A DNA stretch of 64,000 nucleotides from Longimicrobiales bacterium (GCA_965116905.1 OZ220732.1:3264001-3328000), one strand, 5' to 3'. Positions 14,532-38,874 are shown, numbered from the stretch's first letter. Numbers and translations are program-made. Notes: generated by a model from the sequence alone, not told the origin.

Positions 14532-15944
14532 TTACGGGGAAGCCGCACGCACGATCGTGGGCGTGACGAGGATCAGCAGGTCGCGCTGCACTGACGACTC
14601 GCGGCGGGTGCGGAAAAGCCGCCCCAACAGCGGAAGGTCCATCAGCACGGGAACGCCCGACAGGACCTCCCCGGTCTCGTCCACGGTCAGGCCTCCGATG
14701 ACCACGGTCTCGCCGTCCCTCACCAGCACCCGCGACTCCGCTTTCTGTCGGCGAAAGATCAGACCGACGTCCGACGGTGCCAGGTCCGCCGAGGAACGTT
14801 CGGCGGCAAGGTCGAGCATGATCTCGTCCGCGTCGGTGATCCGGGGAGTGACCTCGAGGATCACTCCGGTCTCCTTGTAGTCCACAGTGGCGACAGGGAC
14901 CGTGCTCCGGGTCCCGACGGCCCCGTTCGCTTGAAGCTGCGCCCCCGCGTCGATCACTCTGACCGGCGTTTCTTCACCCACGACGATTCTCGCTGTGCGG
15001 TTGTCCATCACCCGCACGGAAGGCCGTGCCTCCACATCCGTCAACTGAGCCGCTTCAAGGGCATCGATGAAACCGACGAGTGTACTCCGCCCGATCACAA
15101 GCGAGGTAAGCAGCGACAGGGTCGGATTCGCGACCCGGTTGGTCGCGTTGCCCAGAGCCGCAAGCGAGTTTCCGCCGAGAGAGACCACGTCGGTCCCGGC
15201 TTCGGCCTGCCGTTCGGTGGCCGAAACGACCCCGTCTCCATCGACGTCGATGGCCCCCGGGACAAGCAGGTTGAGCTGGTTGCCATCGGTGTCCTTGAGG
15301 TCGTACGTGATCCCGAAGCCCGCCAGCCCCGACCGGTTGACGAAGATGATCTCGGCGGCGATATCCACCTGCCGCGCCCGTACATCGAGATCGCCGACGA
15401 GGCGCCGAGCCGACTCCACCACTCTCGGGATGTCACTCACGACAAGTGTATTGCTCGCCGGGCTCACCGAGACGCGGCCTCGATCACTCAGGAGCGCCGC
15501 GATCAGATCCTGCAACTCCAGCGCGTCTCCGTACCGCACCCTCAGCGGCTCGGTGACGATGGGCAGCACGGATTCGCGGTCGAAAGCACCCCGCATGTCG
15601 AGCACGAGGATGATGCCGCTCTCCTGCTCGTATGCGACGAGCCCATGAGCGTCGAGGAGCGCGTCAAGCGCAACGTTCCACGGCTGGTCCCTAATCTCGG
15701 CGGACACGAGCCGGTCCACACCGGTTCCCGGGATGATCGAGCGATTCGCGAACTCGGCAAAGGTGAAGAGGACATCGCGGATGGGCGTCTCGTCAAAGAA
15801 CACCGAGATCGGCTGGCCGGTCTCCGCTGCGGAGACGCCGGACGGGGGATCGGCCTGCCCGCTGGCTTCGGCCGCGGCGCCGACGGCCGCCGATGTGAGC
15901 ACGGCAAGGTACAGCGACCGCAGGTGGATCCGGATGGAGCTCAT
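14532..15944 (-). CDS. pilQ: Type IV pilus secretin PilQ (short, no AMIN domains)
   Basis: Signal peptide, PWNVALD N0 motif, SNTLVVSD, GVILEVTP, GETVVIGGL, VPVLMDLPLLGRLF, LLILVTP. Confidence 0.9.
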   Translation of the reverse strand: MSSIRIHLRSLYLAVLTSAAVGAAAEASGQADPPSGVSAAETGQPISVFFDETPIRDVLFTFAEFANRSIIPGTGVDRLVSAEIRDQPWNVALDALLDAHGLVAYEQESGIILVLDMRGAFDRESVLPIVTEPLRVRYGDALELQDLIAALLSDRGRVSVSPASNTLVVSDIPRVVESARRLVGDLDVRARQVDIAAEIIFVNRSGLAGFGITYDLKDTDGNQLNLLVPGAIDVDGDGVVSATERQAEAGTDVVSLGGNSLAALGNATNRVANPTLSLLTSLVIGRSTLVGFIDALEAAQLTDVEARPSVRVMDNRTARIVVGEETPVRVIDAGAQLQANGAVGTRSTVPVATVDYKETGVILEVTPRITDADEIMLDLAAERSSADLAPSDVGLIFRRQKAESRVLVRDGETVVIGGLTVDETGEVLSGVPVLMDLPLLGRLFRTRRESSVQRDLLILVTPTIVRAASP

Positions 15945-16510
15945 GTTCCGCTTCTCCGAACCGGTCGGGGAGCCTCGAGGACCCGCCTGGTGACACCCTC
16001 TCCGTCCGTGAGGTCCACGACGACCTGCCGGTGCCGAATCCTGACAATCCGGAGCGGTCCCAGGGTGTCGCCGGTACGCAGCCGATGCGTGGACGCTTCG
16101 GCCGCACGGAGTCCGTCGGCTCCGGGTCCGCCGGCTCCGGCGTCGACGCCCGGCTCCCCGCCGGCGCGGAGCAAGACGAGGCTGTGCCGTGGAATCCTGT
16201 GGTAGATGATCCCCAGGACCTGTAGGCCGGCAACCGCATCCCCATCGGCCGGTTGCACCGCGAGAGGCTTGAATGGGTCACGTCTCCCATGGACGGGATA
16301 CACGAACCTCTCGCGCTCCAGCACCAGTTGGCCGGCCGAACCGGGTCCGTCACCGTACGGCTCCCGGCTGTGACTCGCCGTCCCGGTCGCAACCGGCACT
16401 CCGGCGCTCAACGCGGCACACCAGCCGACCGCAACCAGAAGCGCCAGGGAGCCGGAAACGCCATGGACACGATTCATGGAGATGGGCTCGCGCATTGTCC
16501 GCTCCTTCAT
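15941..16510 (-). CDS. pilP: PilP-like protein
   Basis: RRDPFKPL motif; position between pilO and pilQ; overlapping start/stop codons. Confidence 0.6.
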   Translation of the reverse strand: MKERTMREPISMNRVHGVSGSLALLVAVGWCAALSAGVPVATGTASHSREPYGDGPGSAGQLVLERERFVYPVHGRRDPFKPLAVQPADGDAVAGLQVLGIIYHRIPRHSLVLLRAGGEPGVDAGAGGPGADGLRAAEASTHRLRTGDTLGPLRIVRIRHRQVVVDLTDGEGVTRRVLEAPRPVRRSGT

Positions 16511-17133
16511 GTGTCGGGTTGCTCCGATGCTGTGGCAGAGTCCCGCGGCGTTTGCCGCAGCTCGGGCTTGCGTATGTACGTCGTGAGGCGAACGTGGGCT
16601 GTCACGCTTCCGCTGTGCGCCCTCATGTCGCCCGGTGTGCCAACCGCCGGAACAATGGTCACGACCTGCGGAACCAGTAGTCGTTCCCGGGACGCGGCAT
16701 CGGTAAGGAAACTCGCAACTGCGTGATAGGTCCCCTGGAGCTCCATCTCGTAGCTCCAATGATCGTAGAACGGCCCGTCCTGAATTGGCCCGGGACGCAT
16801 CCTGGTCACCTGGACACCCGGCCCGCCCCGGGCGGCGGAGAGCGATGCCAGAAGCGACGCCAGCTCCTGGTCGGACGGCACGATCGTCTCCAGCCGTTCG
16901 AGTTGCGCCTGGCTGCGTGAGACCCGCTGCTCCAGCAGCCGCGCTTCGGTTGCCCTGCGTTGCCCCTCGGCGTTGTGGGCTTCCAGACGCCGGAGTCTGG
17001 ATGCTTGCTCCTCGACGCGCTCGAAGCGCGGCACGTGAACATAGGTGTACACGAAATAGACACTCGAGACCGCCAGAAACGCGACTAGAACCGCGGCCTT
17101 TCTGACCGGGTCACGAGGCAGCCAACTCACCAT
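16507..17133 (-). CDS. pilO: Type IV pilus assembly protein PilO
   Basis: N-terminal TM, coiled coil, VPSDQELASLL, LQGTYHAVASFL. Confidence 0.8.
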   Translation of the reverse strand: MVSWLPRDPVRKAAVLVAFLAVSSVYFVYTYVHVPRFERVEEQASRLRRLEAHNAEGQRRATEARLLEQRVSRSQAQLERLETIVPSDQELASLLASLSAARGGPGVQVTRMRPGPIQDGPFYDHWSYEMELQGTYHAVASFLTDAASRERLLVPQVVTIVPAVGTPGDMRAHSGSVTAHVRLTTYIRKPELRQTPRDSATASEQPDT

Positions 17134-17804
17134 TGGGCGGTATCGGCCACCGGGACCCAATCGATCAGTTCGGGATCGGGGGTCTCGTGGGCCGCCTCGA
17201 TTACGAAGTCGTAGAGCTCTTCGGTTTCGTCCAACATGGGTCGTTCATTCCGCTCGGAGTTGATGAGCCGAACATCACGCATGAACGGAGAGCCCTCCAT
17301 GGCGTGCCAGAACCGGGTCAATGCGAGATTGCCCCGCGCCGTGCCCTCGATCCGCAGACGGATCGCGTCTTCGGCCGAGGACGCATGGGCCAGCCGCGTC
17401 AGCCACGCTTCCCTCGGCAGCGCACCCGCAACCTCGTCCATCAGATGCGGCCACACGTAGCGCTGTGCGTCCAACTCGAGCACGAGATCAACCCGCGAAG
17501 CGATGGAATCTCGATGCGCCTCGAGAAGGCGCGTGTTCTCAATGGTCACCGCGAGCCGAACCGAATCCCGGAGCGCGACTTCCATGCGGCCCGCAACCCC
17601 TGCCGAATCTTCCCCCGCCGCCGTGACCAGGAGGATCGCCGTGATCGAAGCCGCCAATGCGACAGCCGTCGAACCAATCATCCACCCGTCGCGTGGGAGG
17701 GGCTTCGTCAATCCCGACGGCGCTACCTCTTCGGCGCGCGGGCGACGGCCCCGGCGCTCGCGGAGCAGGTCGACTTCGATCATGGTTCGCGTCTCCGCCC
17801 GCAT
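17127..17804 (-). CDS. pilN: Type IV pilus assembly protein PilN
   Basis: MIEVDLL (INLL-like PilM-binding motif), TM, WPHLMDEVAGALP..WLT, IEGTA. Confidence 0.8.
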   Translation of the reverse strand: MRAETRTMIEVDLLRERRGRRPRAEEVAPSGLTKPLPRDGWMIGSTAVALAASITAILLVTAAGEDSAGVAGRMEVALRDSVRLAVTIENTRLLEAHRDSIASRVDLVLELDAQRYVWPHLMDEVAGALPREAWLTRLAHASSAEDAIRLRIEGTARGNLALTRFWHAMEGSPFMRDVRLINSERNERPMLDETEELYDFVIEAAHETPDPELIDWVPVADTAQW

Positions 17805-18841
17805 CAGGTTGTCCGCAAGGCCAGACCGACGGCGAGGCCCAGCATCGGAGCTGCGTGTTCGAGGGCCCAGTGGGTCGCCAGGCCGGAACCAACCATGACG
17901 CGTTCAAAGGGATTCGCCAGACGGGTCTCCACCTTGACTCGCCGTGCCATGAGATCCGCCAGACCGGGGATGCACGCGCCTCCCCCACTCATATAGACGC
18001 GCCCCAGGCCCCTGCCCGGCTGACGCGCGCCGACGACCGCCGACGCCCGCTCGACACCGGTCACGATGCGTTCGGCCGCCGCGTCCAGCACACCCGCGAA
18101 CGCGGTGCCGCGGTCCCCGCTTCGAAGAAACTCTTCCGCCTTTACGCGGGTCAGGCCGTGCTCCTGCCGCAATCGCTCCAGGATCCATCCGGAGCCAACC
18201 GGAAGATCCTTGGAGAGCACCGGCATGCCATCGTCCAGGAGACTGACGCTCGTGACGTCGTGGCCGACGTTGACGAGCGTCGCCATTCCGTCCGCAGCGT
18301 CCGGATGGTTGTGCACCAACATGTTGTGCAGCGCCAGGGCCTCGACATCGATCAGAGACACGCCGAGCCCCGCTCCCCTGAGCAGAGCAACCCGGGCTTC
18401 GACCCGTTCGCGCCTGGCCGCTACCAGCAACACCTCCGCGGACGTGTCATCGCGGCCGGCTCGAAGAACATGGAAATCCAGCTGCACTTCCCGGAGATCG
18501 AAGGGTACGTGCCGTTCGGCCTCGCGGCGCACTGCCTCGTCACGGGTCGCTCCAAACGGCGATTCGACTGTCAGGGTCTTCATGAAGACGTGGTGTCCGC
18601 CAAGGGCCGTGACCACCTCGGCCGATCCGCCGGGCAGGGTCTCGGCCAGCTTCTGCAGCGCTGCGCCTACGCGCCCCGGACGGATGACCTCCCCGTCTGT
18701 CAGGGCCCCTCGGGGCACTTGTGCGACGGTGACGCTGGTGAGCTCGGGCGAGTCCCCTCCATGATCAACCTCGACGAGCTTGGTGAAGGCACTTCCCACG
18801 TCCAGACCCAGGGTCTTCCGCCCGCGTCGAAACCACGCCAT
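17804..18841 (-). CDS. pilM: Type IV pilus assembly protein PilM
   Basis: LGLDVGS, VPFDLREVQLDF, VLLVAA, IDVEALAL, SGGGA, AVGLALR. Confidence 0.9.
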   Translation of the reverse strand: MAWFRRGRKTLGLDVGSAFTKLVEVDHGGDSPELTSVTVAQVPRGALTDGEVIRPGRVGAALQKLAETLPGGSAEVVTALGGHHVFMKTLTVESPFGATRDEAVRREAERHVPFDLREVQLDFHVLRAGRDDTSAEVLLVAARRERVEARVALLRGAGLGVSLIDVEALALHNMLVHNHPDAADGMATLVNVGHDVTSVSLLDDGMPVLSKDLPVGSGWILERLRQEHGLTRVKAEEFLRSGDRGTAFAGVLDAAAERIVTGVERASAVVGARQPGRGLGRVYMSGGGACIPGLADLMARRVKVETRLANPFERVMVGSGLATHWALEHAAPMLGLAVGLALRTT

Positions 18842-18845
18842 GGCG

Positions 18846-19901
18846 CTATCCGCCAGCCGGAGGGACCGGGCCCGCCCAGGAGCGGCCCGGCAGCGGGATC
18901 GGGCGCGCGAGGGTCAATGCCTCACGGAGTGCGTTGTACGCGGCGCATGCGGACCCGTCGATTACAGAGCCATCGGCAAGTGCAACGGAGCCGCCCGCGC
19001 GCACCAGGCCCACGATCGTGGCGCCCTGCTCAAGGTCCACGTCTCCAGAGGCGAGGACCAGGCCGGTCCAGCTCGCTCCGGCCTGAAGACGCAAGCTTCC
19101 GTGCACGGTCAGAATGCCGGCTTCCTGACCGGTCAACAGAAGGTCGCCCCGGCTGTGCACCAGACCGCGCCAGCACCGGTTGCACCCCAATGTCCCGAAC
19201 GTGCCTCGGTGTGGCACATGGTCGGCAAGTTCCGCAAGCAATGGTTCGGAGAACCACCCGAGCCTCAGGTCGGCGAAGCCTGCGTTTCCCGCGGAGCCCC
19301 ATTCGGGTGGACTCGGCAGCGACGCGTAGGCCATCAGGTGCTGCGCGAGAGGGAAATCGGGAAGCGTCGCCAACTCGTCACACCCCTCCATCCCCGCCCG
19401 AGTGGCAAGGATGGAGTCCGTGCGGACACTGGCCGCCAATCCCATTGCCAGCGAATCCGCTTCCACTACCGCGCGGTGCGATGCCGTCCGTGCCAGCGGG
19501 TCCGGCCACCAGGCCACCCGGGCTTCCCGCATGGGGACGCCATCACCCACCTCCCCCTCGCCGATGAAGAGATGGAATTCGCGCGCGAGCCGGAGTTCAC
19601 GCACACGCCAAGTGCCCTGATGACCGAATGTTCCGGAGTCCAGCACCATGGCGGCGGACCCCAACTCCGTGCCGGGCGTTCCGCGTGCCTGCTGAAACCG
19701 TATGTCCAGGCCCCCGCGAGCTCCCGTGCGCGCCGACAACACCTTGCCCGCCATCGTGGCAGCGCGCATCTGCCCCACCGACGCGGCCACCGCCGCCGAG
19801 GCGATCCCGGCCAGGACCAGCAGGGCCAACAGAGCCAGGACCAGGGCGAAACCACTCTGCCCGGAAGCAATCGTGTGCCTCCGCGCGCCTTCGTGCCTCA
19901 T
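18846..19901 (-). CDS. PilX-like minor pilin
   Basis: Prepilin site G|FALVLALL lacking Glu5 (PilX/GspK trait); ATGA overlap with upstream gene. Confidence 0.7.
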   Translation of the reverse strand: MRHEGARRHTIASGQSGFALVLALLALLVLAGIASAAVAASVGQMRAATMAGKVLSARTGARGGLDIRFQQARGTPGTELGSAAMVLDSGTFGHQGTWRVRELRLAREFHLFIGEGEVGDGVPMREARVAWWPDPLARTASHRAVVEADSLAMGLAASVRTDSILATRAGMEGCDELATLPDFPLAQHLMAYASLPSPPEWGSAGNAGFADLRLGWFSEPLLAELADHVPHRGTFGTLGCNRCWRGLVHSRGDLLLTGQEAGILTVHGSLRLQAGASWTGLVLASGDVDLEQGATIVGLVRAGGSVALADGSVIDGSACAAYNALREALTLARPIPLPGRSWAGPVPPAGG

Positions 19902-20620
19902 CTGCGTCCCCAGCTCCTCCACCGGAAGGAAGGCGGAATGGGGCTTGGTCCCTTCCAGGTCATTCGGGCCTCCAGACCGCCGTTCGCCACAGGCGCAAGG
20001 CTGGCCGAGTCGACTGCAATCCCCGTTCCCGTCAATGGCTGCCATGCCGCGCCGCGCCGGTATCGGAAGGCGCCGTCGGAGAAGCGATATGCACCGCGTT
20101 CGAAATACATGCCCACGAGGGGACGGTCGACCGGCGGGTCCAGCAGCCACACCTCGGTGGAAAACCCGGCAACCCGCCGACAGTCGAGCCCTCTCCGCCG
20201 CAACGATCTCGTCAATGCCGAGACGCTCCACCGCCCGTCCTCGGACAGTACAAGAACCGAGTCCTTGTCGGAGTCGGGCGAGCGGTAGCCGGACACCGCG
20301 ACCGCCCAACCCTGCGGCAACTCGGTCGCACACCGGATGGCCATGCCCCGAAAGGCACGGAGGTGCAATTCCTCATCGATAATGGTCCAGTCAACGCCGG
20401 GCTGGCCGTACGCAATCTCGGTCCCGAGGACATGGTGGATCAATCTCGTTTCGTCGAGAATCCTGGCACCGGTGACTACCTGGGTCGCCACGACGCTTTG
20501 GACCGCCGTGACCCACCAGCTCACCTGCACGACCATGAGCAGCAGCGTCCCTGCCACCACTGCTTCCGTCAGAGCGAAGCCAAGCATCCCTTCGCGCCGC
20601 CGACCGCTGCGCGGAATCAT
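19898..20620 (-). CDS. PilW-like minor pilin
   Basis: G|FALTEAVV prepilin motif plus hydrophobic helix. Confidence 0.68.
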   Translation of the reverse strand: MIPRSGRRREGMLGFALTEAVVAGTLLLMVVQVSWWVTAVQSVVATQVVTGARILDETRLIHHVLGTEIAYGQPGVDWTIIDEELHLRAFRGMAIRCATELPQGWAVAVSGYRSPDSDKDSVLVLSEDGRWSVSALTRSLRRRGLDCRRVAGFSTEVWLLDPPVDRPLVGMYFERGAYRFSDGAFRYRRGAAWQPLTGTGIAVDSASLAPVANGGLEARMTWKGPSPIPPSFRWRSWGRR

Positions 20621-20967
20621 GCTTCCGGCTCGTCGCGCGTCGTTCGAACAGCAAAGTCGACGCGGATTTCAGCAGGGAGAGCCACATGCTTGAAGCTTGC
20701 CCAGCCCGGCGACCCGGGGTGCGCGGAGACGCTCCAGTTCAAGACGCCGGCGGGGTGTGCCCGTACGCCCGCCGCCTCGACCCGGGCGCCATTCAGCATG
20801 ACCGAGTCCACGAAGTTCTGAAGCTCCACCCTGGCCTCGTCCAGCGCGGTGGCCCGCACCAGAGTGCGTGCCGAGGTCGCCGTCAGCGACGCCACACCGG
20901 CTACACCCACACTCACAATTGCGACCGCCACGACCAGTTCCATCATCGAGACCCCCGACGTGTTCAT
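20617..20967 (-). CDS. PilV-like minor pilin
   Basis: G|VSMMELVVAVAIV prepilin motif. Confidence 0.68.
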   Translation of the reverse strand: MNTSGVSMMELVVAVAIVSVGVAGVASLTATSARTLVRATALDEARVELQNFVDSVMLNGARVEAAGVRAHPAGVLNWSVSAHPGSPGWASFKHVALPAEIRVDFAVRTTRDEPEA

Positions 20968-21425
20968 CGGCGTGACACCCGGCCAAGCGAGGACAGCACG
21001 AGTCGGCGCTCCTCTCCAGCAAGTCCGAAACGCAGCGTCTGGCTGGAGACCATCCCGAGCCCCATGGGCCCAAAGCGGACGCTTGCCGTCGGCCGGCCAC
21101 GCGAGAGCCCAAGCGCAACACCGCCCTCGTCCAGGCTCGCAGCCACTACGGTGTCGCCGGCAGCGCTGACCACAACGCCATGGGCGGGATCGGCAACCAA
21201 CTCCACCGTAGCGGCGCCGTGCATCACGGCGGTCCAGCGTGCTTCGGCGAAGAGCCTCGCAGCCTCTTCACGGGATCTTTGCAGGTAGAACGACGTACGC
21301 AGCTTGCGTGCCGAGCTGAGAAGTGGCGGCGCCAGTGCCGCCAGCACGACCAGGAGCACCGCGATCTCAATGATCGAGTAACCGGATCGGGACGTGGGAT
21401 TCACGGCTGCTCCGTGCTGCGGCAT
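20964..21425 (-). CDS. FimT/FimU-like minor pilin
   Basis: G|YSIIEIAVLL prepilin motif, ARWTAV, C-terminal VRFGPMG...LSSLGRV; start 21425 or GTG 21404. Confidence 0.7.
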   Translation of the reverse strand: MPQHGAAVNPTSRSGYSIIEIAVLLVVLAALAPPLLSSARKLRTSFYLQRSREEAARLFAEARWTAVMHGAATVELVADPAHGVVVSAAGDTVVAASLDEGGVALGLSRGRPTASVRFGPMGLGMVSSQTLRFGLAGEERRLVLSSLGRVSRR

Positions 21426-21592
21426 CGCCCCCCACCTCATCCGACGCTTCCTGGGTCCGTTCCTTGCGATCATGTTCCTTCCCTCCGACGTGGCGGCATG
21501 TTCGACAACTTCAATAACGCGGGCTGCATTGGGCGTTTGAATAGCTGAATCGGCCTTTGTTCCGAGGCATGCCGATTCGAAGAGAAGGAAGG

Positions 21593-21985
21593 TCACGGCG
21601 TGCATACGACCTGGCCCTCGGCTTCGGGACTGACGGAGCCAATCGTCGGCGCAGTGGCCGATCCGTAGTAGAGCGCGCAACCCCTGTCCTCGCCCAGTGC
21701 AGCATGAGTTGCCGTCGCCGACCAACCCGAGGTCGACGCGGCGGACGTCACGGTCACCGATTCCGAGGACACGAAGTTCAAGTCGGCCAGGGAACTCGTG
21801 TACTGGTAGTTGGTCGCGTAGTACAGCTCCTGTTGCGCCGCAAGATTGCGAACGTCCGACTTCATCGCGGCGAAGTACGCCTTTTCCCTGGTCGCCGAGA
21901 ACTGCGGAATCGCGATGGCCGAAAGAATGCCGATAATGACCAGAACGATGAGCAGTTCGATTAGGGTAAATCCTTTTGTGTTCAT
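21593..21985 (-). CDS. pilA: Type IVa major pilin
   Basis: MNTKG|FTLIELLIVLVIIGILSAIAIPQF; C-terminal Cys pair. Confidence 0.9.
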   Translation of the reverse strand: MNTKGFTLIELLIVLVIIGILSAIAIPQFSATREKAYFAAMKSDVRNLAAQQELYYATNYQYTSSLADLNFVSSESVTVTSAASTSGWSATATHAALGEDRGCALYYGSATAPTIGSVSPEAEGQVVCTP

Positions 21986-22030
21986 AATCTGAGGATCCTT
22001 TATTGATAATTCACATGACATCGTGCAAGG
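21986..22030 (-). promoter_or_regulatory. AT-rich probable pilA promoter/RBS region
   Basis: Minus strand TTGCACGATGTCATGTGAATTATCAATAAAGGATCCTCAGATT-ATG, markedly AT-rich in a GC-rich genome; exact boxes not resolved. Confidence 0.4.
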
Positions 22031-22048
22031 ACGTTGGTCGTCGCGGCT

Positions 22049-23761
22049 TCACGGGGGCGGACCTGCGCTCTCGCCCATGATGCGGAGACGCACGGCAATC
22101 GCCTCGTGCGCCCGTCCCTGGGCTTCGAGCGACCGGGCGAGAAGATGGAGCTGGACTCCGTCATGAGGCTTCACCCGCAGGGCGGCCCGCGACGAAGCCT
22201 CTGAAAGCACCCAACGGCCCTGGCGGTCGTGGAGGACAGCCAGCAACGCGGGCGCGGCACCGTACTGGGGATAGTCGCGCCAGGCACGGCTCAATACGTG
22301 CTCCGCGCTTCGGTCCAGCCTCTCGGCGAGCAGGTTGCGACCGATTTCCACCAGCAGGGCGTAACTGCCACCGATCCTGCCCATGGCCCGACGGTACGCC
22401 GCGAGTCCAGGTCCGTGCTCGCCAAGGGCGAAGTACGTGTCGCCGATGACCCATTGCGCGCGCCCGGACTCCGGGCGATCCCGGAGCAGCGTGCTGAAGA
22501 CGGCTGCGTTGTCTCGCCATGTCGGATTGCGCGCGATGGTCCGGCATAGCAGCAGGGACAGCGCGGTGACTGCCGCCAGCACCCCGACGCGTGGCCGCTC
22601 CCGCGCGAGTTGTGCGAACATCCATCCGGCTCCCGCCGCCAAACCGACAGAGGGCAGGAACAGCGTCCGCTCCGCGAGGAGCACCCCCGTCAGAAAGAGG
22701 AGATTGGCCGTCGGCAGAGCCGTAATGATGAACCACAGCACACCGAATCCGGCTGCCCTCGGAGAGGAGCGTCGCGGAGTCAGGGGCGCGGTCCTCCAGG
22801 TCTTCCAGGCGACGACCAGAGCGGTCAGCGCAAGCACCATTCCCAGGCCGTTTCGCGCCGTCCATCCGTACGACACGGGAATCACGTCCGGCGTGTAGTC
22901 GGACGACAGTTCCAGCGGAAAAAACAACAGCCGAAAAACCTCCGGCCATGTATTCATCACCGTCCAGATTCGAGGAACCTCTCCGGACGCGAGGATTTCC
23001 GCCCCCAGGGGCGGCAACGGATCGGCAATCCCTCCCAGGACCAGCACCCGGCCCGTCAGAAACACGGCCGTCACCAATGCGAGCACGGTGTAGAGGGCCA
23101 GCCGCTCCTTCAGATAGGGCCCCAGGGCCGAAAGGCGCGGATCCTTTCGAGCCGCGTCGATCAACAGGACGGCGCCGGGCAGGGTGACCGCACTTTCCTT
23201 TGAGAGGACAGCCACGAGAGACAGGCCGCCCGTAGCCGCAAGCCGAGGGATTCCCAAGCGTCGCGGATGGCCGGTCACCAGGAGGCAAGCACCCAGATAC
23301 GCATTCGCCGCCAGCAGTTCCGACAGGCCGACCACGTTCGCGACCGCCTCCACGTGCACCGGATGCACGGCAAACACCAGCGCGCCGAAGAGTGCGGCCG
23401 ACGGGGGAAGAAGGCGGCCCAGCAGGATCGCAACCAGCGCCGCGGCCGTGCCGTTCAGCAGGATGTTGACGGCATGAAAGCCGGTCGGATCCCCACGCCA
23501 CAATGTCCACTGGAGCCCGAGCACCCATGTGGTCACGGGCCGCCAGAGACCCAGCGCCCGGCCCTGCCGGTTGGGCCAATAGGGCTTCAGGGCGGTGCCC
23601 GAAAGGGTTCTCAGACTGTGAATGTCCTCGTTCGCGGCCAGCACGGGCAGGTCGTCGTAGGCAAAGTCGTTGCCAAGGCTGTTGGCAAACGCCAGAACGG
23701 CCGCTGAAGCGGCGACGACCGCAACCATCCCGATTCCCGTGTCCTGCCCCAGCCGCACCAT
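22049..23761 (-). CDS. TMTC-like GT-C glycosyltransferase (DUF1736-like) with C-terminal TPRs
   Basis: FAYDD, WRPVT, FAVHPVHVEAVANVVG, SKES, PLELSSDY, AERTLFLPSVG, RNPTW, then TPR-like helices. Confidence 0.8.
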   Translation of the reverse strand: MVRLGQDTGIGMVAVVAASAAVLAFANSLGNDFAYDDLPVLAANEDIHSLRTLSGTALKPYWPNRQGRALGLWRPVTTWVLGLQWTLWRGDPTGFHAVNILLNGTAAALVAILLGRLLPPSAALFGALVFAVHPVHVEAVANVVGLSELLAANAYLGACLLVTGHPRRLGIPRLAATGGLSLVAVLSKESAVTLPGAVLLIDAARKDPRLSALGPYLKERLALYTVLALVTAVFLTGRVLVLGGIADPLPPLGAEILASGEVPRIWTVMNTWPEVFRLLFFPLELSSDYTPDVIPVSYGWTARNGLGMVLALTALVVAWKTWRTAPLTPRRSSPRAAGFGVLWFIITALPTANLLFLTGVLLAERTLFLPSVGLAAGAGWMFAQLARERPRVGVLAAVTALSLLLCRTIARNPTWRDNAAVFSTLLRDRPESGRAQWVIGDTYFALGEHGPGLAAYRRAMGRIGGSYALLVEIGRNLLAERLDRSAEHVLSRAWRDYPQYGAAPALLAVLHDRQGRWVLSEASSRAALRVKPHDGVQLHLLARSLEAQGRAHEAIAVRLRIMGESAGPPP

Positions 23762-23955
23762 CGTGTTTCATGCTTCATCCCGGAGAGACGTTCGGAGTCC
23801 GCGATCAAAGGTCCAACCGAAACCGAGGTGCGAACGCCGTTTCGGGCGAAGTATGCCTCCGAATCATGGGCGCTGGCATAGTGGAAACGGCCATTCGGTC
23901 CAGACGGGGTCCGAAACTCCCGGACTGGCGCAAACATCGGGACCGCACCAGGCGG

Positions 23956-24702
23956 CTACTCCCCCTTGTCCTCCTCCAGCCATGCCGGCCGCGGGGCCTT
24001 CCAGGGTCTCGGCTTCGGCCCCAGGAGATTGCTTCGGAGAATGAACCAGATCGCGGAAACGCCGTCCTTCCAGCCGATCTTCTTGCCCTCGGCGTACGAG
24101 CGTCCATCATAGCTGACCGGCATCTCGTAGATGCGGGCCTCGGCCTGGGCCAGCCTGGCGGTGATCTCCGGCTCAATGCCGAAGCGGTCCACGGTCAGCG
24201 GAAGGGATTGGAGAAGCTCTCGCCGGACAAGCTTCTGGCACGTCTCCATGTCGGTCAGGTTGAGGTCGGTCAGGACGTTGCTCAGCAGCGTGAGAATCCG
24301 GTTCCCGACCATGTGCCAGAAAAACAGGACCCGGTGCGGCCCGCCCAGAAAACGAGACCCGTAGACGGCATCGGCCTTGCCGTCGGCGATCGGCCCGAGC
24401 AGGCGCGGAATCTCGCCGGGATCGTACTCCAGGTCCGCGTCCTGAACCGCCACCACGTCCGCGGTCGCGTGCCGGAATCCCGTTCGAAGTGCGGCCCCCT
24501 TCCCCCGGTTGCGGTCGTGGAGGAACAGATGGTCGATCAAGCCGATCCCGTGCAGCCGGGTGAGGAGCGGACGCGTTCCGTCGCTCGACCCATCGTCGAC
24601 CACGATCACCTCCTTGGCGACCGGCACGGAGGCCACCCGCCGCAGCAGCTCCTCGACCGTCGCGCGTTCGTTGTACACGGGGATGACGATCGAAACCGTC
24701 AT
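23956..24702 (-). CDS. GT2 glycosyltransferase, DPM1-like polyprenol-phosphate sugar synthase
   Basis: SIVIPVYNE, VDDGSSDG, NRGKGAALR, QDADLEYDP, LTDMET, GKKIGWKDG. Confidence 0.88.
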   Translation of the reverse strand: MTVSIVIPVYNERATVEELLRRVASVPVAKEVIVVDDGSSDGTRPLLTRLHGIGLIDHLFLHDRNRGKGAALRTGFRHATADVVAVQDADLEYDPGEIPRLLGPIADGKADAVYGSRFLGGPHRVLFFWHMVGNRILTLLSNVLTDLNLTDMETCQKLVRRELLQSLPLTVDRFGIEPEITARLAQAEARIYEMPVSYDGRSYAEGKKIGWKDGVSAIWFILRSNLLGPKPRPWKAPRPAWLEEDKGE

Positions 24703-24843
24703 GCGCGCCAGGGCCCGACCGGTTCGGTCCGGCGGCGGACGGTCAGCGCTACTCAACGTTCCGCGTGTCCGCCGAAGGTGGGGAGGGCGGCGCCGACACT
24801 CGAAACAGCCCGCGGAAGCCGGTCCAACTGAAGCCGCGAACGG

Positions 24844-25749
24844 CTACCTGGAACCGACCGGCACTTCCAGGGTCTGCCCGGCGTAGATCCGCGTGCTGCG
24901 AAGGCTGTTTGCCGACTGCAGCTGATCTACCGTCGTACCGTAGGCTTGCGCGATCGTCCAAAGGGAATCGCCCGAGCGGACCTCATATCGGACGACCGAC
25001 GGCATGGGACCCTCGTCGGCCACCTGCGACCCTGAAGCGGCCGCCACCCGACGTTCCGCTTCGATACGCTCCACGTAGCGAGCGTACTCGTGAGTATACA
25101 CGGCGATGTGGTAGTGCGGCGGATACCTCTCGTAGGTCGCCTGCACCGTGCCCCGCTCCTCGAGGTGCAGCAGCACGTCTTCCAGCCAGGCGCGGCACGG
25201 CCGGTGGTTGCTCCGGCGCAGATCGACGGCCATTCCGGTGGGATGGACCGACAGGCGGGACGCGTTGCGGGGCTGCCGGTTCAGGGCGCGAGTGAGACTC
25301 GTCACGACCAGTACCTCGCCACACGCGCTCCGATACTGGCGCGACAGCCGTTCCACGAAAGTCCGGACTTCGGCGCGCGCGTAGGGGAAGGACACCTCGT
25401 CGTCGATCACGTAGCTGTCGTTGCCTCGCAGCGGGACCAGGAGACCCAGGTCGACGAGGCGCCGCACGTGATCTGGATCCCTGGCAAAGGAGTAGTCGTA
25501 TTCGATGGCCCGCCGGTTTTGCTCCTGCATCGATGCGAGCCCGCCCCGCAGACTCTGCCCGGCCAAGGGGCCGGAGAAGCCCATGGCAACAACGGACAAT
25601 ACCGGCAAACACCGCCTCAGTGCCCCGCAACCACTCCATCCGTGCCGTGACTGAGCCCTCAAGTACGCTTCCTCCTCTGGGAGTTCCGGGCTGAATCGCA
25701 TCGCCGGCTCGCAGCGCGAAACATATGTATTAGCCTCCACGCTGTCCAC
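24844..25749 (-). CDS. DUF5715-like (LAS/M15-like peptidase motifs) protein with C-terminal LysM; start uncertain
   Basis: VTSLTR, HPTGMAVD, PPHYHI; YEVRSGDSLWTIA...IYAGQTLEVP LysM. Confidence 0.75.
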   Translation of the reverse strand: MDSVEANTYVSRCEPAMRFSPELPEEEAYLRAQSRHGWSGCGALRRCLPVLSVVAMGFSGPLAGQSLRGGLASMQEQNRRAIEYDYSFARDPDHVRRLVDLGLLVPLRGNDSYVIDDEVSFPYARAEVRTFVERLSRQYRSACGEVLVVTSLTRALNRQPRNASRLSVHPTGMAVDLRRSNHRPCRAWLEDVLLHLEERGTVQATYERYPPHYHIAVYTHEYARYVERIEAERRVAAASGSQVADEGPMPSVVRYEVRSGDSLWTIAQAYGTTVDQLQSANSLRSTRIYAGQTLEVPVGSR

Positions 25750-29714: not shown

Positions 29715-30764
29715 TCATCCCACGGCGCCGATCATGTCGAAGATCGGCAGGTACATCGCAATGATCATGCCACCGACCACCGCACCCAAAACCAGGATCA
29801 TCGCCGGTTCGACCGCCGCGATGAGGGCCTCCAGCGCGCTGTCCACTTCCTGATCGTAGAAATCGGCGATCCTCACCAGCATTTCGTCCAGGCCGCCGGT
29901 CTGTTCTCCCACCTCCACCATGCGTATGACCATCGGCATGAATACTCCGGAGGCCTCGAGCGGGCCCGCGATCGTATCCCCTCCGGCGATCGAGGCCCGC
30001 GATTTCATCACGGCGTCGTGTATCACCCGGTTGCCGGCGGTTCGCGCCGTGACCTCGAGCCCGGTCAGAATCGAGACGCCCGAGGTCGCAAGCGTGCCGA
30101 GGGTACGCGTGAAGCGGGCCACCGCGGCCTTGCGCAGCAATGTCCCGACGAAAGGAACGGACAGGACAAGTCGATCCAGGGCCAACCGGCCCCGCGCGGT
30201 TCGATACAGGCGCCCCGTCGCCCACGCGGCGGCCATGAGCACGGCGAACACGGCCCACCAGTAGCCCTTCGCAATCTCCGACGCCGCGATCACGATGCGT
30301 GTAGGCAGCGGAAGGGGAACGCCGGCAGACGCGAACATCGTCTGAAATGTGGGAACCACGAACACCAGCAGGATGACCATGGCCGGGATCGCTACCGCGA
30401 AGATCATGGCGGGGTAGACCACGGCAGCGCGGACCTTTCGGGCCAGGGCGTGGTGCTTCTCCAGAGAATCGGATAGCCGCTCGAGGATGGTGTCCAGCGC
30501 ACCGGCGGTCTCACCAGCCTCGACCATGCTAACGGCCAACTCCGAGAACACGGTGCCGTGTTGGCGCATCGCTCCGGCCAGCGTTTGCCCGGACTCGACC
30601 GCCGACACCATGGAACGGATCACGCCGCGGAAATACCGGTGTCCGGTTTGGCGGGCAAGCAGATTCAGCGACTGAAGGAGCGGAAGTCCCGCGCTGATCA
30701 TGGTGGCGAACAAGCGAATGAACACTGCCACTTCGCGCGTTGACACGCGCCGCAGGTGTTTCAC
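29715..30764 (-). CDS. pilC: Type IV pilus platform protein PilC (N-terminally short)
   Basis: ATMISAGLPL, VEAGETAG, YP, ARFTRTLGTL, GEQTGGLD, YLPIF; GTG start overlaps pilT stop. Confidence 0.9.
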   Translation of the reverse strand: MKHLRRVSTREVAVFIRLFATMISAGLPLLQSLNLLARQTGHRYFRGVIRSMVSAVESGQTLAGAMRQHGTVFSELAVSMVEAGETAGALDTILERLSDSLEKHHALARKVRAAVVYPAMIFAVAIPAMVILLVFVVPTFQTMFASAGVPLPLPTRIVIAASEIAKGYWWAVFAVLMAAAWATGRLYRTARGRLALDRLVLSVPFVGTLLRKAAVARFTRTLGTLATSGVSILTGLEVTARTAGNRVIHDAVMKSRASIAGGDTIAGPLEASGVFMPMVIRMVEVGEQTGGLDEMLVRIADFYDQEVDSALEALIAAVEPAMILVLGAVVGGMIIAMYLPIFDMIGAVG

Positions 30765-31885
30765 CCAAGGGCCCCTTGTCCGTTGAATCCGTCTGGCGCG
30801 GGCTCTCCCACGAACCGCAGCAATGCCGCTGGATCCGAGCTGCTCGCCAGTGCCACCTCCAGCCGGACTTCCCCGTTGAGATAGAGGCGGGCGAGGGAAT
30901 CGTTCATCGTCTGCATCCCATGCTTTCTGCCTGCCTCCATCAGTGACCGGATCTGGTGCACCCTCTCGTCCCGGATCACCGCACGGATCGCGTCGGTGCA
31001 CACCAGGACTTCGGTGGCCACCACCCTGCCGCTTCCCAAGGCCCGCGGGAGCAGTATCTGCGTCACGACTCCCTCCAGCACCGAGGCCAGCTGCGTGCGC
31101 ACCTGGTGCTGGCCATGTGCAGGGAATACGTCTACGACGCGGTTGACCGAGTCCGAGGCAGAGTTGGTATGGAGGGTCGCAAGAACCAGATGGCCCGTCT
31201 CGGCGATGGACAGCGCAGCACCGATGGTCTCCGCATCTCTCATCTCCCCGATCAGAATCACGTCCGGATCCTGTCGCAGCGCGTATTTCAGACCTGTCGC
31301 AAAGGAGCGCGTGTCGACGCCGACCTCCCGCTGGTTGACGATGCAGCGCCGGTGTGAGTGCACGAACTCCATGGGGTCTTCGATCGTGATGATGTGACCA
31401 CGCAGACGCCGATTGATCAGGTCCACCATGGCAGCCAGCGTGGTGGACTTCCCGGACCCCGTCGGCCCGGTGACCAGCACAAGACCTCGTGGACGCGTGG
31501 CCAGCCGATGCATGATCGGGGGAAGTCCCAGCTCTTCCAGCGATCCGACCCTGTGCGGTATGTGCCTCAGAGCCAGGGCGATTTGGCCGCGCTGCCAAAA
31601 GCAGTTGCCCCGGAATCGGGCCAGATCCGGAACGTCGAACGCAAAGTCCAGATCGCGCTCCTCTTCGAACCGCCGCCGCTGATCCGGTGTCAGGAGCGCT
31701 TCAGCCAACCCTTCCGTGTCCGTGGACACGAGGATCGAAACGTCTTCGACCTCCCTCAGGGTGCCGTCGATCCGCAGCTTTGGGCGCTCGCCAACGGTCA
31801 GGTGGAGATCCGACGCGCCACGTCCCACCATCTCCCTCAGCAGTTGCTCCAGCCCCGGCATCCCGGTCGGCCTCGTGGCGGTCAT
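30761..31885 (-). CDS. pilT: Type IV pilus retraction ATPase PilT
   Basis: ASDLHL, GPTGSGKSTT, TIEDP, QREVG, LRQDPD, ETGHLV, AIRAVIRD, GMQTM. Confidence 0.93.
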   Translation of the reverse strand: MTATRPTGMPGLEQLLREMVGRGASDLHLTVGERPKLRIDGTLREVEDVSILVSTDTEGLAEALLTPDQRRRFEEERDLDFAFDVPDLARFRGNCFWQRGQIALALRHIPHRVGSLEELGLPPIMHRLATRPRGLVLVTGPTGSGKSTTLAAMVDLINRRLRGHIITIEDPMEFVHSHRRCIVNQREVGVDTRSFATGLKYALRQDPDVILIGEMRDAETIGAALSIAETGHLVLATLHTNSASDSVNRVVDVFPAHGQHQVRTQLASVLEGVVTQILLPRALGSGRVVATEVLVCTDAIRAVIRDERVHQIRSLMEAGRKHGMQTMNDSLARLYLNGEVRLEVALASSSDPAALLRFVGEPAPDGFNGQGALG

Positions 31886-32712: not shown

Positions 32713-35700
32713 TCAGGAGGGGCGGCGAAGAAGATCGGACGTAAGCAGGAACCGGCCGAAGACGTTGAGCTGAAACTGGGTCGATCCCGCACGCTGGCCG
32801 ACGAAGGAGCGGCGGTCGAGGTATCGCAGCCTGACTCCAAGCTGGAAATCCCGTACCGTAGAGTCGAGTGCCAGTGAGACGTCCCGTTCCAGCTGATCGA
32901 TGAACGCCACGCACGGACTGTCCGGATTCGATAGCCGGCATTCCACCTCGTCCCCGTATCGGACATTCAGGGTGACCCGCATCGGTGCACCCCTTTCCCT
33001 GAATGCCCGCACCGGGGACCGCAGCAGGGCGGTCACGAGCAGCGAATGCGCGTCCCCTTCCCGCTTCGTGTCGCCGGTCGGATCACGGCTGCTGCCCCGA
33101 TCCAGCCGGCCCTCATAGGCCAGCGTGATGCCGCGGGCGAGACCCAGCGTGAGCGACATGGGGATCTGGCGGTCTTCGCGGAAGCGGTCCTGCTGTGCCC
33201 CCTCGCCGAACCCGAGGCTGCGGGTCACCTTCCGGTATCCGGAGCCCAGCGAGAGACGCTCGACAACCCTGGTCAGGAAACGCGGAATCCCCACCTCGCC
33301 GATCGTCGCGCGGACATCGGGCCAGACCCGCCTCAGATCTTGCCGGTCGGAGCGCGTATCCAGCGCTTCATTGAGGGCCCGGTCGAACGAGAGCCGGACG
33401 GCCGTAGAACCCGGCAGCCTCATGCCACCCCGAATCGTGACGCGGTCGCGCTCGCTCAGCGTCGAGGCCGTGTCGGCGCCGATGGTCAGGAAGTCGTCCC
33501 GGCCGCCCCAACCCAATTCATAAATGGCATTGGGATTTACGGCCTCTCGATTAAAGCGTGACGTGAGACCGTGGGAATAGGCGAATGAAAGGGGATCGAA
33601 GGCTCGAGCCAATCGCCTGGCGGGCGTGTCCTGACCGGGTTCGTCCGCCACCATGCGGCCAGGATCGACGGACAGGCTTGCGATGAGGTTCCTCTGCCCG
33701 TCCACGTTCCGCAGCAGCACCAGCGCCGAGTCGCGACCGGTGCCACGATTCTCGATCAGATCGGCGTTGCGTTCGGAAAGATAGATCGTGGTCACCTGGA
33801 CGTTCGTCCGGGCCCAATCCGTGAGCCGTGGCTGATACACCAACCGGGTTCGCAGGTGACGGTTCACCTCCCATCCCAGGTCGACGCCGCCCACGTTTCG
33901 GCGTTCCGCGGCCAGGAGCGTCCTTCGCCGGTCGTCGGTTGTCAGGTCCTCCAGAGCCAGAAGGTCCCTTCCGCTCAGCAGGTCCGCCGATACGGCGAGC
34001 GATTCCACAGGACGGAACCCGATCGTTGCGGATGCGGTCACCCGCTCCCGCGGTGCGCGTGTGGCCACGGCGAGAGAGTCGTCGGGACTGCGAATGATCC
34101 TGTCGAAGCGCAACGTGCTGAGGTCGCGGTTGAGGAGCTCGCCGGTAAAGCCCAGGCTCTCGGGAGTCCACCGAAGTCGGGCACCCGCAATTCTGTCTTC
34201 GAGGAACGACGGGAGGATCGCGCGCAACGCAGCGCCAACCACCCCCGGGAAAAGCGGAAGTTCGCGGCGCGCCGGGGTTGCCGAGTAGCCGACAAAGGCG
34301 TCCACGCCGGACCCGTCGCTCTCCGTCGTAATGGTGCGCAGGGAGGTACGCACCATTCCGGCCCGCACATCGAGCCCGTCCAGCAGCACATCCCACGGAC
34401 CGCTCGCCTCCTCACTCCGGCGGCGCAGCGAAATGTCCATCCGCGAGCGGCTGAAGCCGGGTTGCCGGAGTCCCTCCAGCCGGTCGGCGCGGACATCGCT
34501 GCGTCCGAGGAAGATGGGCGCCTGTCCCTCCTGTTCATGCGTGAAGGAGAGCGGCGCCTCCAGGCCCCAGGACTCCGGTGTGAAGCGCCCCAGTTGCATC
34601 GTGGCCTGCACGTCGAGCGTACGGTCGTTCTGGAACGTCGGACCGGCCTGCAGTTGGCGAAAATACCCGCCCCTGCGGCGGAAGGAGGCACGGGACTGCA
34701 GAAACTCTCCGCCGCGAACCTCGGCGTCGACGGCCGACACGAGGCCCCCGTCCCGGATTCCATTCGCCAGCCGAAGCTCGTCGACCCATACCTCACCCGA
34801 GATCGGAGCACCGGACTGGTTCATGACCCCGAGGCTGATCTCGCGTACCGACGCGAGGTTGGGAGCGCGGCCCCGGTCCTGCAGCACCACCGCGTAGGTG
34901 GAGTCCGCCGACCACAGCTCCAGGGGCGGGTCCCCGGGCAATCTCGGTTCGAGAATAAGCCGCTCCTCGGCCTGCCGCCTCAGCGTGAGCCACTCGTCGA
35001 AGCCGATGACCACCTCGGGCAGCCAGTCCTCCTCCGCGACCGCGCCGGGTGAGCCGGCTGGATCGAGGCGTGTCCGGAACATGTAGAAGTTGCCGTCGTC
35101 GGTCCCGAACTTGACGAAGAAGTACACGGGAAGCTGCACCCCGAAATCGCCCCTGGGGGCAACCGCCCACAAACGGGCTTCCCGGTAGGACAGGAAATCC
35201 CGGGGTCGTTGCGGGAACCGGTTGTACACCTCCACACGGTCCCCGGGCAGCAGGTCGGAGAAACTCACGGCAAGCGAGCGTTCGTTGAATTCGACGCCCT
35301 GCCCTCCAAAGGCGATCGTCGGATCGTCCAGCTGCTCGATGACCCCGGGCGGGGACGTGTACGCATTCCCCGCCGTGAGCCTGGACACCGGACCCACCTC
35401 GACGCGTCCGTGGACCGATGCGGTGTCCCCGCCGATCCCGGTGAGAACGCCCGTGAGCGAACGCTTGATCCACGTCGATCCCACGATCCCCATGCGGGCC
35501 AGAACGAAGGAATCGCGGCGCTTGCCGGCAACGGTAAGGCGCAGGTGACGCACCGCGCGCAACTCCGCGTCGCTGATCGCCCCGCCGACGTCGATCCCGG
35601 CCGGATGACGCAGCGGGACCCGGTAGAGCCGGAATGCGGTGCCGGTTTCCTGCCGGTCCCGAACCAGAAACGGAGACGACCCGTCCAGGGAAACCACGAA

Positions 35701-38700: not shown

Positions 38701-38874
38701 GCGTTCCTGCTGGCCATCGATTCCCCCCGCCGACGCGAGCAGCAGCGCGATGGCCGCCGCAGATGCCCGACCGCCGCCTCCGCCTGGCCGGCCCGGGCCA
38801 CGGACCCGCCAGCGGATCCGGTCAGGTCCGGACTCGCGGCGCCGGAGACTCCCGCGGGATCGGTTACATTTCAT
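32713..38874 (-). CDS. sprA: SprA/Sov-like giant outer-membrane protein (2053 aa)
   Basis: SprA-like motifs EVGDV..P...NFG, NPNT.G.VYVDDYDG, PDTEDLD.DGNLD, GEVWVDELRL; signal peptide; amphipathic beta-strand C-terminal region. Confidence 0.72.
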   Translation of the reverse strand: MKCNRSRGSLRRRESGPDRIRWRVRGPGRPGGGGGRASAAAIALLLASAGGIDGQQERGPPLADTLLWIIPQLRQPLESLMSPPAPPPPAVRLGLARVPVARFGLALNAPPLLLRRMPGQPVSLSPPVRPDWNEEPLARLGTLGRTFGYADIPAPRPRAVLGGRVVDPERFQNEFADLGFFLRGTGQFGGDWTQFRPCDETVQVTCELPTLPKLNPDIQFAANADGTITNRILVDVDYDQTREFQGANRVNIHYQGLPGEVLQRFEVGDVRLDLPPSRFLREGVPAGNFGFQAALRAGPVDIQSVWAQQSGEVTSRRFRLEGSGRGFSRTDTLIIDDADYVDGQFFFLFDPAQLPEYPHVDALALTPADAPPEVAPGDDAIQLYRSEIDLYARQQVEGYIQADAAAGLAADTVAESAWFRYLQPGQDYVVHPSGLWLALRSPLSPGEILAVTYITATGDTIGTYSPERIYRDGGRPRLRLLKASSAQHQPDRPTWRTEMHQVYRVSSSGDVDPGTVELTLSLGEESAGRTFARRPNGDDLTYLRLFGLDEESPADRLDQSQIYRPALDSFEDQPPVSGTFIVFPTLEPFANPPPLRSLAIDSVEVARILGANRNERIYRDPDPFERDNGGVFRLNLAYQVTGEGLLSSFALGAVGIREDTERVTLGERPLLRDVDYVIDYDIGQLTLVNPDALLAANPGRVLEVSWEQRSFFQVAPTSVFGVNARYDLGGYGAVNLVGLYQSEDELVRRPQLGVEAGAVGLGGVNATVNLDAPVLTRVLNAIPGLDAGSESSVHLSGETAASLPNPNTQGAVYVDDYDGVNARPLSVQSQEWRRGSRPAFRDGAEDALPPIMSPETVASLTWQHTWIDEGAGGDSLGVFQGFNPSADIDRQIRITGSAIREPGLFVRFQPRSGDEEGPGGWASMTTVLSPTGTDLTKSDFIEFYVRDGDFLHLVLDLGIVSEDAFFVDTVGAVSGVKPIVHVPWGEGILDQEADPRRGEVWGRLADGRGVWVEDCFAERGRVYRLGDPNANCTRGNGRPDTEDLDEDGNLDTLERYRRFVVSLDGSSPFLVRDRQETGTAFRLYRVPLRHPAGIDVGGAISDAELRAVRHLRLTVAGKRRDSFVLARMGIVGSTWIKRSLTGVLTGIGGDTASVHGRVEVGPVSRLTAGNAYTSPPGVIEQLDDPTIAFGGQGVEFNERSLAVSFSDLLPGDRVEVYNRFPQRPRDFLSYREARLWAVAPRGDFGVQLPVYFFVKFGTDDGNFYMFRTRLDPAGSPGAVAEEDWLPEVVIGFDEWLTLRRQAEERLILEPRLPGDPPLELWSADSTYAVVLQDRGRAPNLASVREISLGVMNQSGAPISGEVWVDELRLANGIRDGGLVSAVDAEVRGGEFLQSRASFRRRGGYFRQLQAGPTFQNDRTLDVQATMQLGRFTPESWGLEAPLSFTHEQEGQAPIFLGRSDVRADRLEGLRQPGFSRSRMDISLRRRSEEASGPWDVLLDGLDVRAGMVRTSLRTITTESDGSGVDAFVGYSATPARRELPLFPGVVGAALRAILPSFLEDRIAGARLRWTPESLGFTGELLNRDLSTLRFDRIIRSPDDSLAVATRAPRERVTASATIGFRPVESLAVSADLLSGRDLLALEDLTTDDRRRTLLAAERRNVGGVDLGWEVNRHLRTRLVYQPRLTDWARTNVQVTTIYLSERNADLIENRGTGRDSALVLLRNVDGQRNLIASLSVDPGRMVADEPGQDTPARRLARAFDPLSFAYSHGLTSRFNREAVNPNAIYELGWGGRDDFLTIGADTASTLSERDRVTIRGGMRLPGSTAVRLSFDRALNEALDTRSDRQDLRRVWPDVRATIGEVGIPRFLTRVVERLSLGSGYRKVTRSLGFGEGAQQDRFREDRQIPMSLTLGLARGITLAYEGRLDRGSSRDPTGDTKREGDAHSLLVTALLRSPVRAFRERGAPMRVTLNVRYGDEVECRLSNPDSPCVAFIDQLERDVSLALDSTVRDFQLGVRLRYLDRRSFVGQRAGSTQFQLNVFGRFLLTSDLLRRPS

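Follow-up and report, generated by a model that had tools for sequence, protein, structure and literature searches.

Gene content of the locus

At the centre of this study is a 64,000-nt stretch of DNA (hereafter the window) from the genome of a Longimicrobiales bacterium (GCA_965116905.1 OZ220732.1:3264001-3328000), a single contig that is 97% complete. The named sequencing runs that contain the stretch are sponge metagenomes, and the relatives compared below are labelled Longimicrobiales, Gemmatimonadota. The window includes three intact, co-oriented open reading frames (ORFs) on the minus strand, in the order reported by a preliminary description of this DNA: a GT2 glycosyltransferase, a membrane protein with tetratricopeptide repeats (TPRs), and the major pilin gene pilA. 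Together they stand at the head of a type IVa pilus operon. The gap between the GT2 and the membrane/TPR ORF is ~190 bp and that between the latter and pilA is ~60 bp. Contigs from four independent runs/studies cover the locus, which excludes an assembly artefact. As judged from its sequence and from structural models, the 570-aa membrane/TPR protein is probably a TMTC-family GT-C enzyme that acts as an O-glycosyltransferase on the neighbouring PilA. The three genes, in window coordinates, are as follows:

23956..24702, minus strand: GT2 of the polyprenyl-phosphate glycosyltransferase type (ArnC/DPM-synthase-like), 248 aa
22049..23761, minus strand: TMTC-like GT-C transferase, 570 aa, with predicted membrane helices at 8-415 and TPR helices at 418-564
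21593..21985, minus strand: major type IVa pilin PilA, 130 aa, comprising a 5-residue leader and a 125-aa mature pilin

The transferase: motifs, family, and predicted fold

All of the TMTC hallmarks listed in the preliminary description are present in the transferase: D36-D37, HPVHVEAV (133-140), K188-E189, D288-Y289, AERTLFLPS (363-371), RNPTW (411-415), and a TPR region from ~415. Most of them are invariant among 89 aligned close relatives (D36, D37, H133, H136, E138, K188, E189, Y289, E364, R365, R411, and W415), and D36, D37, K188, E189, E364, and R365 are also invariant in 58 more distant relatives. The gene is single copy in the genome and is under purifying selection (ratio of nonsynonymous to synonymous substitution rates of 0.18-0.24 in four of four comparisons); its product is ~55 aa shorter at the C-terminus than most relatives.

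The relationship to animal TMTC proteins proposed earlier was borne out, with one part of the suggested profile check failing. A profile of the membrane domain matched an amphioxus TMTC1-like protein (E 2.5e-69), with which the transferase shares 27% identity over 593 columns in pairwise alignment (E 2e-33). The Pfam model DUF1736 (PF08409), on the other hand, scored 14.5 bits on the transferase, below its curated cut-off of 27, and a PF08409 search of the organism's own genome at E 0.01 returned zero matches. The protein is therefore classed as a TMTC-like homologue and not as an orthologue of animal-type TMTCs. PMT_2 is matched by 18 of the 58 more distant relatives and DUF1736, weakly, by 11 (best E 1.4e-4). 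The atlas contains a eukaryote DUF1736 cluster at 0.91, as well as look-alikes of the transferase in several phyla. No TMTC-family chain was found in the PDB sequence set with the membrane-domain profile, and sequence search of that set gave only weak TPR matches; plasmid and viral collections contained no useful relative. The family tree, reconstructed with FastTree, includes one labelled eukaryote row and gives no direction of transfer. Within the family, protein P0276, labelled Bathyarchaeia, combines a TMTC-like domain with a PAP2 phosphatase domain in a single fusion.

The AlphaFold model of the transferase (confidence score pLDDT 89.6) most closely matches AglB (3waj; Z 20.4, root-mean-square deviation 4.2 over 321 aligned residues), followed by ArnT (Z 17.8), STT3B (17.6), and Pmt2 (17.5), consistent with the GT-C fold anticipated for this protein. 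These matches came from a VIA search; Foldseek on the full model returned TPR proteins only. The helix list of the model suggests ~11 membrane helices and a periplasmic position for both the TPR domain and the acidic loops. By homology and predicted fold, the middle gene encodes a TMTC-like GT-C enzyme.

Linkage of the transferase to pilin genes

Synteny was evaluated in a close set, comprising the top 80 of the 602 genome loci that were confirmed, and in a distant set of 40 top-match loci picked from other genomes, mostly from two other families of the class. A pilin lies within 3 kb of the transferase in 70 of the 80 close loci and in 54/54 where both flanks reach 3 kb; nine of the ten misses end at a contig edge. 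The GT2 is also present in 53 of these 54 loci with full flanks. This linkage could be inherited gene order, since unrelated SOD (42/80) and LysM (49/80) neighbours persist in the same loci. Among the distant loci, SOD and LysM neighbours are found in 0/40, whereas a pilin lies within 3 kb in 30/40 (28/36 with room). The synteny of TMTC-like genes with pilA proposed earlier is thus recovered at both depths. Furthermore, in 6/40 distant loci the pilins are head-to-head with the transferase, facing away from it. This suggests that adjacency survived inversion, with the qualification that all six belong to one family and may represent one event.

These data bear directly on an unlikely alternative, namely that the transferase O-glycosylates periplasmic proteins in general and stands beside pilA through inherited gene order. 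The conserved SOD and LysM neighbours within Longimicrobiales are compatible with it, as are the great size of the family (a profile containing TPRs gathers 22,866 clusters at E up to 1e-30) and the 97 Gemmatimonadota rows that form a clade in the FastTree phylogeny, of which 77 are pilin-near, 17 solo, and 3 undetermined. However, distant families have lost the housekeeping neighbours and kept the pilin, the three family-sample genomes that have no pilA match (G085, G131, and G059) also have no transferase, and the model of the transferase-pilin complex described below passes its mark.

Relatives carry two to four diverged paralogs of the transferase at the locus, often two or three in tandem, and in some (L063, L119, L142, and L191) extra PMT_2-type GT-C genes lie between the GT2 and the TMTC-like genes, which suggests elongated or multiple glycans. 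Several other ORFs inserted at the relatives' loci had no Pfam match.

Loss of the transferase among relatives

Across 91 genomes of the order, matches to the transferase were obtained in 32 genomes, to the GT2 in 69, and to pilA in 53; the pilA cut-off misses the divergent pilins of one family. When 32 genomes were checked with a profile search, 29 gave no match, and in many of the relative loci that were fetched the GT2 stands directly beside pilA. Successive stages of decay were identified within one genus: G204 (L152) has a clean deletion of the transferase between the GT2 and a pilA that is 93% identical, G062 (L154) retains a 5' remnant of ~70 codons, and G131 (L158) has lost the transferase together with the whole pil run, leaving the GT2 beside aroC. 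On the best pilin tree, the presence/absence label of the transferase changes at least 13 times, and two of these changes are required by branches with strong support. Relatives have lost this accessory system repeatedly. Since the GT2 is kept where the transferase is gone, it serves some other purpose as well, and the transferase is an accessory component; the dedicated three-gene system envisaged in the preliminary description is not upheld, given that the GT2 outlasts loss of either the transferase or the whole pil operon.

Predicted complex of the transferase and PilA

A complex model of the transferase with PilA reached an interface score (ipSAE) of 0.65 (0.58/0.65/0.67 in individual runs), whereas the highest-scoring of three controls reached 0.00. 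The mark applied to this score is reached by 116/157 solved complexes and 2/215 mismatched pairs, and is roughly valid here, where custom alignments were used. The runs share at least 92% of contacts, and the pLDDT of the partner is at least 81. In the model, residues 1-22 of the pilin lie along transferase membrane helices 6, 8, and 9 (199-213, 308-323, and 342-345), pilin residues 42-53 and 64-71 rest on TPR helix 449-465, and the pilin N-terminus lies on the side that is probably cytoplasmic, such that the pose fits the predicted topology.

The position of this interface on the pilin helix, away from the catalytic loops, would also be expected if the transferase bound the pilin mainly as an accessory or chaperone, or if it modified other parts of the pilus, such as minor pilins or an adhesin. 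Minor pilins have the same N-terminal helix and lie in the same gene run, and the paralogs and PMT_2-type genes of relatives suggest several acceptors. We nevertheless regard this explanation as improbable: the catalytic-type residues are invariant and would be unnecessary in a pure chaperone, and the transferase gene always abuts the major pilin and never the minor ones, including after inversion.

The pilin

The model of PilA comprises a helix (3-54), a loop (55-71), three strands (72-78, 82-89, and 97-103), and two cysteines. The loop contains serines S59, S60, S68, S69, and S71, and Thr and Ser alternate on the predicted strands 72-78 and 82-89. The closest solved match is Thermus PilA4 (6xxd; E 1.5e-5). 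Over its first 57 residues the pilin (window 21593-21970) most resembles Geobacter-type pilins (E 2e-20). Aromatic residues account for 12/125 positions, near the threshold for 'e-pilins', although position 27 is Thr.

The GT2 and the donor sugar

The GT2 matches Pfam PF00535 (E 2e-34) and has no hydrophobic membrane helix. Its matches to solved relatives are about equal for ArnC (E 2e-18) and an archaeal DPM synthase (E 7e-17), and it falls below the cut-off of every NCBIfam GT2 model (AglJ, ArnC, and PpgS). Assignment to GT2 therefore stands, whereas the label 'DPM1-like' given to it previously is too specific. The enzyme likely makes a lipid-phosphate-monosaccharide, and we lean towards its being the donor synthase for the transferase, shared with other users. 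Mannose as the donor sugar, and hence the +162 Da modification previously anticipated, is doubtful, because the SHKSY stretch of TMTCs, which the authors of PMC7801869 docked on mannose, is replaced here.

Two TMEM260-like (PF11028) GT-C genes (G000:C1:499077-499574 and 2064636-2065136; L364 and L365), with counterparts in four of four relatives tested, may encode further clients of the GT2. Neither a pilin nor a GT2 of the kind searched for was found within ~5 kb of the two genes. One relative (G141) has TMEM260-like genes and no close GT2 match.

Transfer of the sugar to a non-protein acceptor such as lipid A or a surface glycan, in the manner of ArnT with an ArnC-like GT2, is very improbable: in its favour, ArnT comes second among the structural matches and the GT2 has ArnC as its best solved relative, but ArnT is likewise the best basis for models of human TMTCs as described in PMC7801869, the sequence kin of the transferase are protein O-transferases (TMTC), and neither a TPR domain nor linkage to pilins is expected with a lipid acceptor.

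Proposed mechanism and opposing evidence

The reading that we consider probable, glycosylation of PilA by the transferase, would proceed at the periplasmic face of the inner membrane, where the enzyme would attach a sugar to Ser/Thr of the pilin. The donor would be a lipid-phosphate-sugar, probably supplied by the upstream GT2, which probably also feeds other enzymes. A monomeric, membrane-anchored pilin would be held by membrane helices 6, 8, and 9 and the TPR domain, and modification before pilus assembly would fall on the loop that follows the long helix (S59-S71) or on exposed Thr/Ser of the strands. The minor pilin-like genes in the same run may encode alternative acceptors. By analogy with the pilin glycosyltransferase TfpW, the likely benefit would be to mask the pilus from phages.

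Several observations weigh against this proposal. With respect to linkage, the GT2 lies within 5 kb in only 19/40 distant loci, no pilin is near in 15 of 18 further paralog loci, and among 78 distant metagenome loci, many of them short, 67 are away from pilins, as are 20 of the 30 that reach at least 10 kb. The 11 of 78 with a pilin nearby (10 of the 30 reaching 10 kb) fall mostly in one cluster of near relatives, and linkage outside Gemmatimonadota rests on metagenome contigs. The transferase is also dispensable: among 14 same-genus genomes it is found in five (one a remnant), compared to 13 for the GT2 and 12 for pilA. In addition, a GtrA flippase match is absent from the organism's own genome. 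In the complex model, D36/D37, K188/E189, and E364/R365 are absent from the confident contacts, and the controls were non-membrane proteins, such that helix-on-helix packing may raise the score; the model therefore supports binding, not catalysis.

The Ser/Thr content of the pilins was not discriminating. The head of PilA is Ser/Thr-rich (23.7%), as the preliminary description noted, but this richness does not serve as evidence of glycosylation given that relatives lacking the transferase have pilins with almost as much Ser/Thr (20.1%, n = 30, vs 23.7%, n = 100; one row, whose genome keeps a homologue elsewhere, was dropped from the transferase-less set). The largest falls in Ser/Thr in transferase-less pilins are at S59 (0.78 to 0.27) and T80 (0.86 to 0.40). 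Relative to other columns, the drop in Ser/Thr was not significant (p 0.11 and 0.28), and the comparison of independent pairs, of which only three are supported, had no power; a narrower Ser/Thr count gave p 0.036 without correction for kinship.

Two further signals were set aside. A test for relaxed constraint on the predicted interface among transferase-less pilins gave p 0.014 or 0.18 depending on the threshold, with no relaxation within the helix. An excess of change was observed in all 14 lineages but also in transferase-positive members of the same clade, and was discarded as evidence.

Comparison with known systems

PglL/TfpO enzymes carry out periplasmic O-glycosylation of pilins from a lipid carrier, using lipid-diphosphate oligosaccharides. 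The system proposed here is similar in location, acceptor, and use of a lipid carrier, and differs in that the organism's own genome has no PglL-type Wzy_C match, which we count in favour of the transferase as the pilin-modifying enzyme.

The closest parallel is TfpW (AAM52060.1) of Pseudomonas aeruginosa group IV strains, a pilin D-arabinofuranosyltransferase of 646 aa that is adjoined by pilA and is described as sufficient for pilin glycosylation from lipid-linked arabinose (bioRxiv 10.1101/2020.04.19.049825). The likeness, drawn from the published description, includes the GT-C assignment, a DD motif in the first periplasmic loop, 11 predicted transmembrane (TM) helices, a periplasmic C-terminal TPR domain, an ArnT-like model, and a gene beside pilA. 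By analogy, the use of a lipid-monophosphate-sugar donor and of multiple Ser/Thr acceptors would also be common to both. TfpW had been presented in the preliminary description as a contrast to this locus; as an 11-TM GT-C protein with a DDX motif and a C-terminal TPR domain encoded beside pilA, it shares the architecture and the role proposed for the transferase and is therefore a precedent. The two prolines of the YX6PFX7P motif described for TfpW have counterparts at the same spacing in P282 and P291, invariant in 89/89 and 58/58 rows, while the exact motif occurs in 0/89 and 0/58 rows; Y-x6-P-x8-P occurs in 30/89 (shuffled mean 3.8) and 9/58 (2.0). Differences include gene order (tfpW is downstream of pilA whereas the transferase here is upstream), the described TfpW partners (a DPPR synthase/DprE1/DprE2/GtrA arabinose set vs the GT2 here), and the two or three tandem paralogs that are frequent in this family. 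TfpW-type pilin glycosylation is described as blocking phages (bioRxiv 10.1101/150227). By analogy, the locus probably encodes a GT2-fed variant of TfpW-type pilin glycosylation, a kind already known; if so, it would extend that kind to a GT2-fed form across the whole phylum.

Animal TMTC1-4 (CAZy GT105) share with the transferase a homologous membrane domain and a TPR tail (PMC7801869, PMC11292533). Of the motifs described in PMC7801869, M1 (DD), M4 (KE..T), M5 (D-aromatic, here DY), and M7 (ER) are kept; M2 (SHKSYRP) is reduced to aromatic-R-P only, and substitutions affect the R of M3 and the leading P of M6. Animal TMTCs are described as modifying Ser/Thr on strands of folded domains (PMC7801869/PMC11292533). 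They have far more TPRs and a cadherin substrate, whereas the protein described here has a bacterial host and no cadherin substrate. Uncharacterised full-length prokaryotic TMTC homologues are mentioned by Eisenhaber et al. (PMC7801869). In the open-licence literature, we found no paper that joins TfpW or pilins to TMTC, nor one on a bacterial TMTC-like pilin transferase.

The pilin itself also has a parallel. Thermus thermophilus PilA4 (6xxd) is described as glycosylated at S59, S66, and S71 in loop 55-77 (PMC7203116). It has the same length as the mature PilA described here (125 aa), and the five serines S59, S60, S68, S69, and S71 fall in the matching loop. The PilA4 glycan differs in being an oligosaccharide (PMC7203116).

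Taken jointly, these comparisons allow a broader reading that we offer tentatively and consider rather unlikely as a whole. Bacterial TMTC-like proteins would glycosylate pilins, recognising a folded, membrane-anchored pilin through membrane helices and TPRs, and TfpW would be the one studied member of a very large family. Animal TMTCs would have inherited this way of recognising folded domains and moved it to cadherins, Gemmatimonadota would share a lipid-sugar pool between TMTC-like and TMEM260-like enzymes, and host-associated lineages would have shed the pilin branch repeatedly. If true, bacteria would already pair both of the animal families of domain-specific O-glycosyltransferases. How the TPRs of TMTCs choose folded substrates is described as an open question (PMC11292533), and a 570-aa enzyme with an adjoining 125-aa candidate substrate and a passing complex model would offer a small, testable bacterial model of TMTC substrate recognition.

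Surrounding genes

The remaining genes of the pilus system and other neighbours in the window are as follows:

20964..21473, minus strand: FimT/GspH-like minor pilin gene
20617..20967, minus strand: PilV-like minor pilin gene
19898..20620, minus strand: PilW-like minor pilin gene, named from its position, with no Pfam match
ending at 18846, minus strand: PilX-like minor pilin gene, named from its position
14532..18841, minus strand: pilM, pilN, pilO, (pilP), and pilQ, in the same operon-like run (Pfam PilM_2, PilN, PilO, and Secretin)
29715..31885, minus strand: pilT and pilC, the latter named from its translation
24844-25749: DUF5715 + LysM protein, kept upstream of the GT2 in 49/80 close loci

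With pilT and pilC in the window and pilB and pilD located elsewhere in the genome, the pilus machine is complete. In relatives, a pilS-pilR pair lies directly upstream of the GT2 (L044:4142-7125; L123:13031-16047); it is missing from the corresponding position here (window 24702-24844), and the relatives' query found no pilS match in the genome. Promoter scans of the locus identified no informative sigma-70 or sigma-54 site, and in an RNA-labelled run contig depth over the locus was flat, from which nothing was learned on transcription. Further along the window, on the plus strand, a 2053-aa ORF (32713-38874) encodes a putative large outer-membrane protein with a resemblance to SprA.

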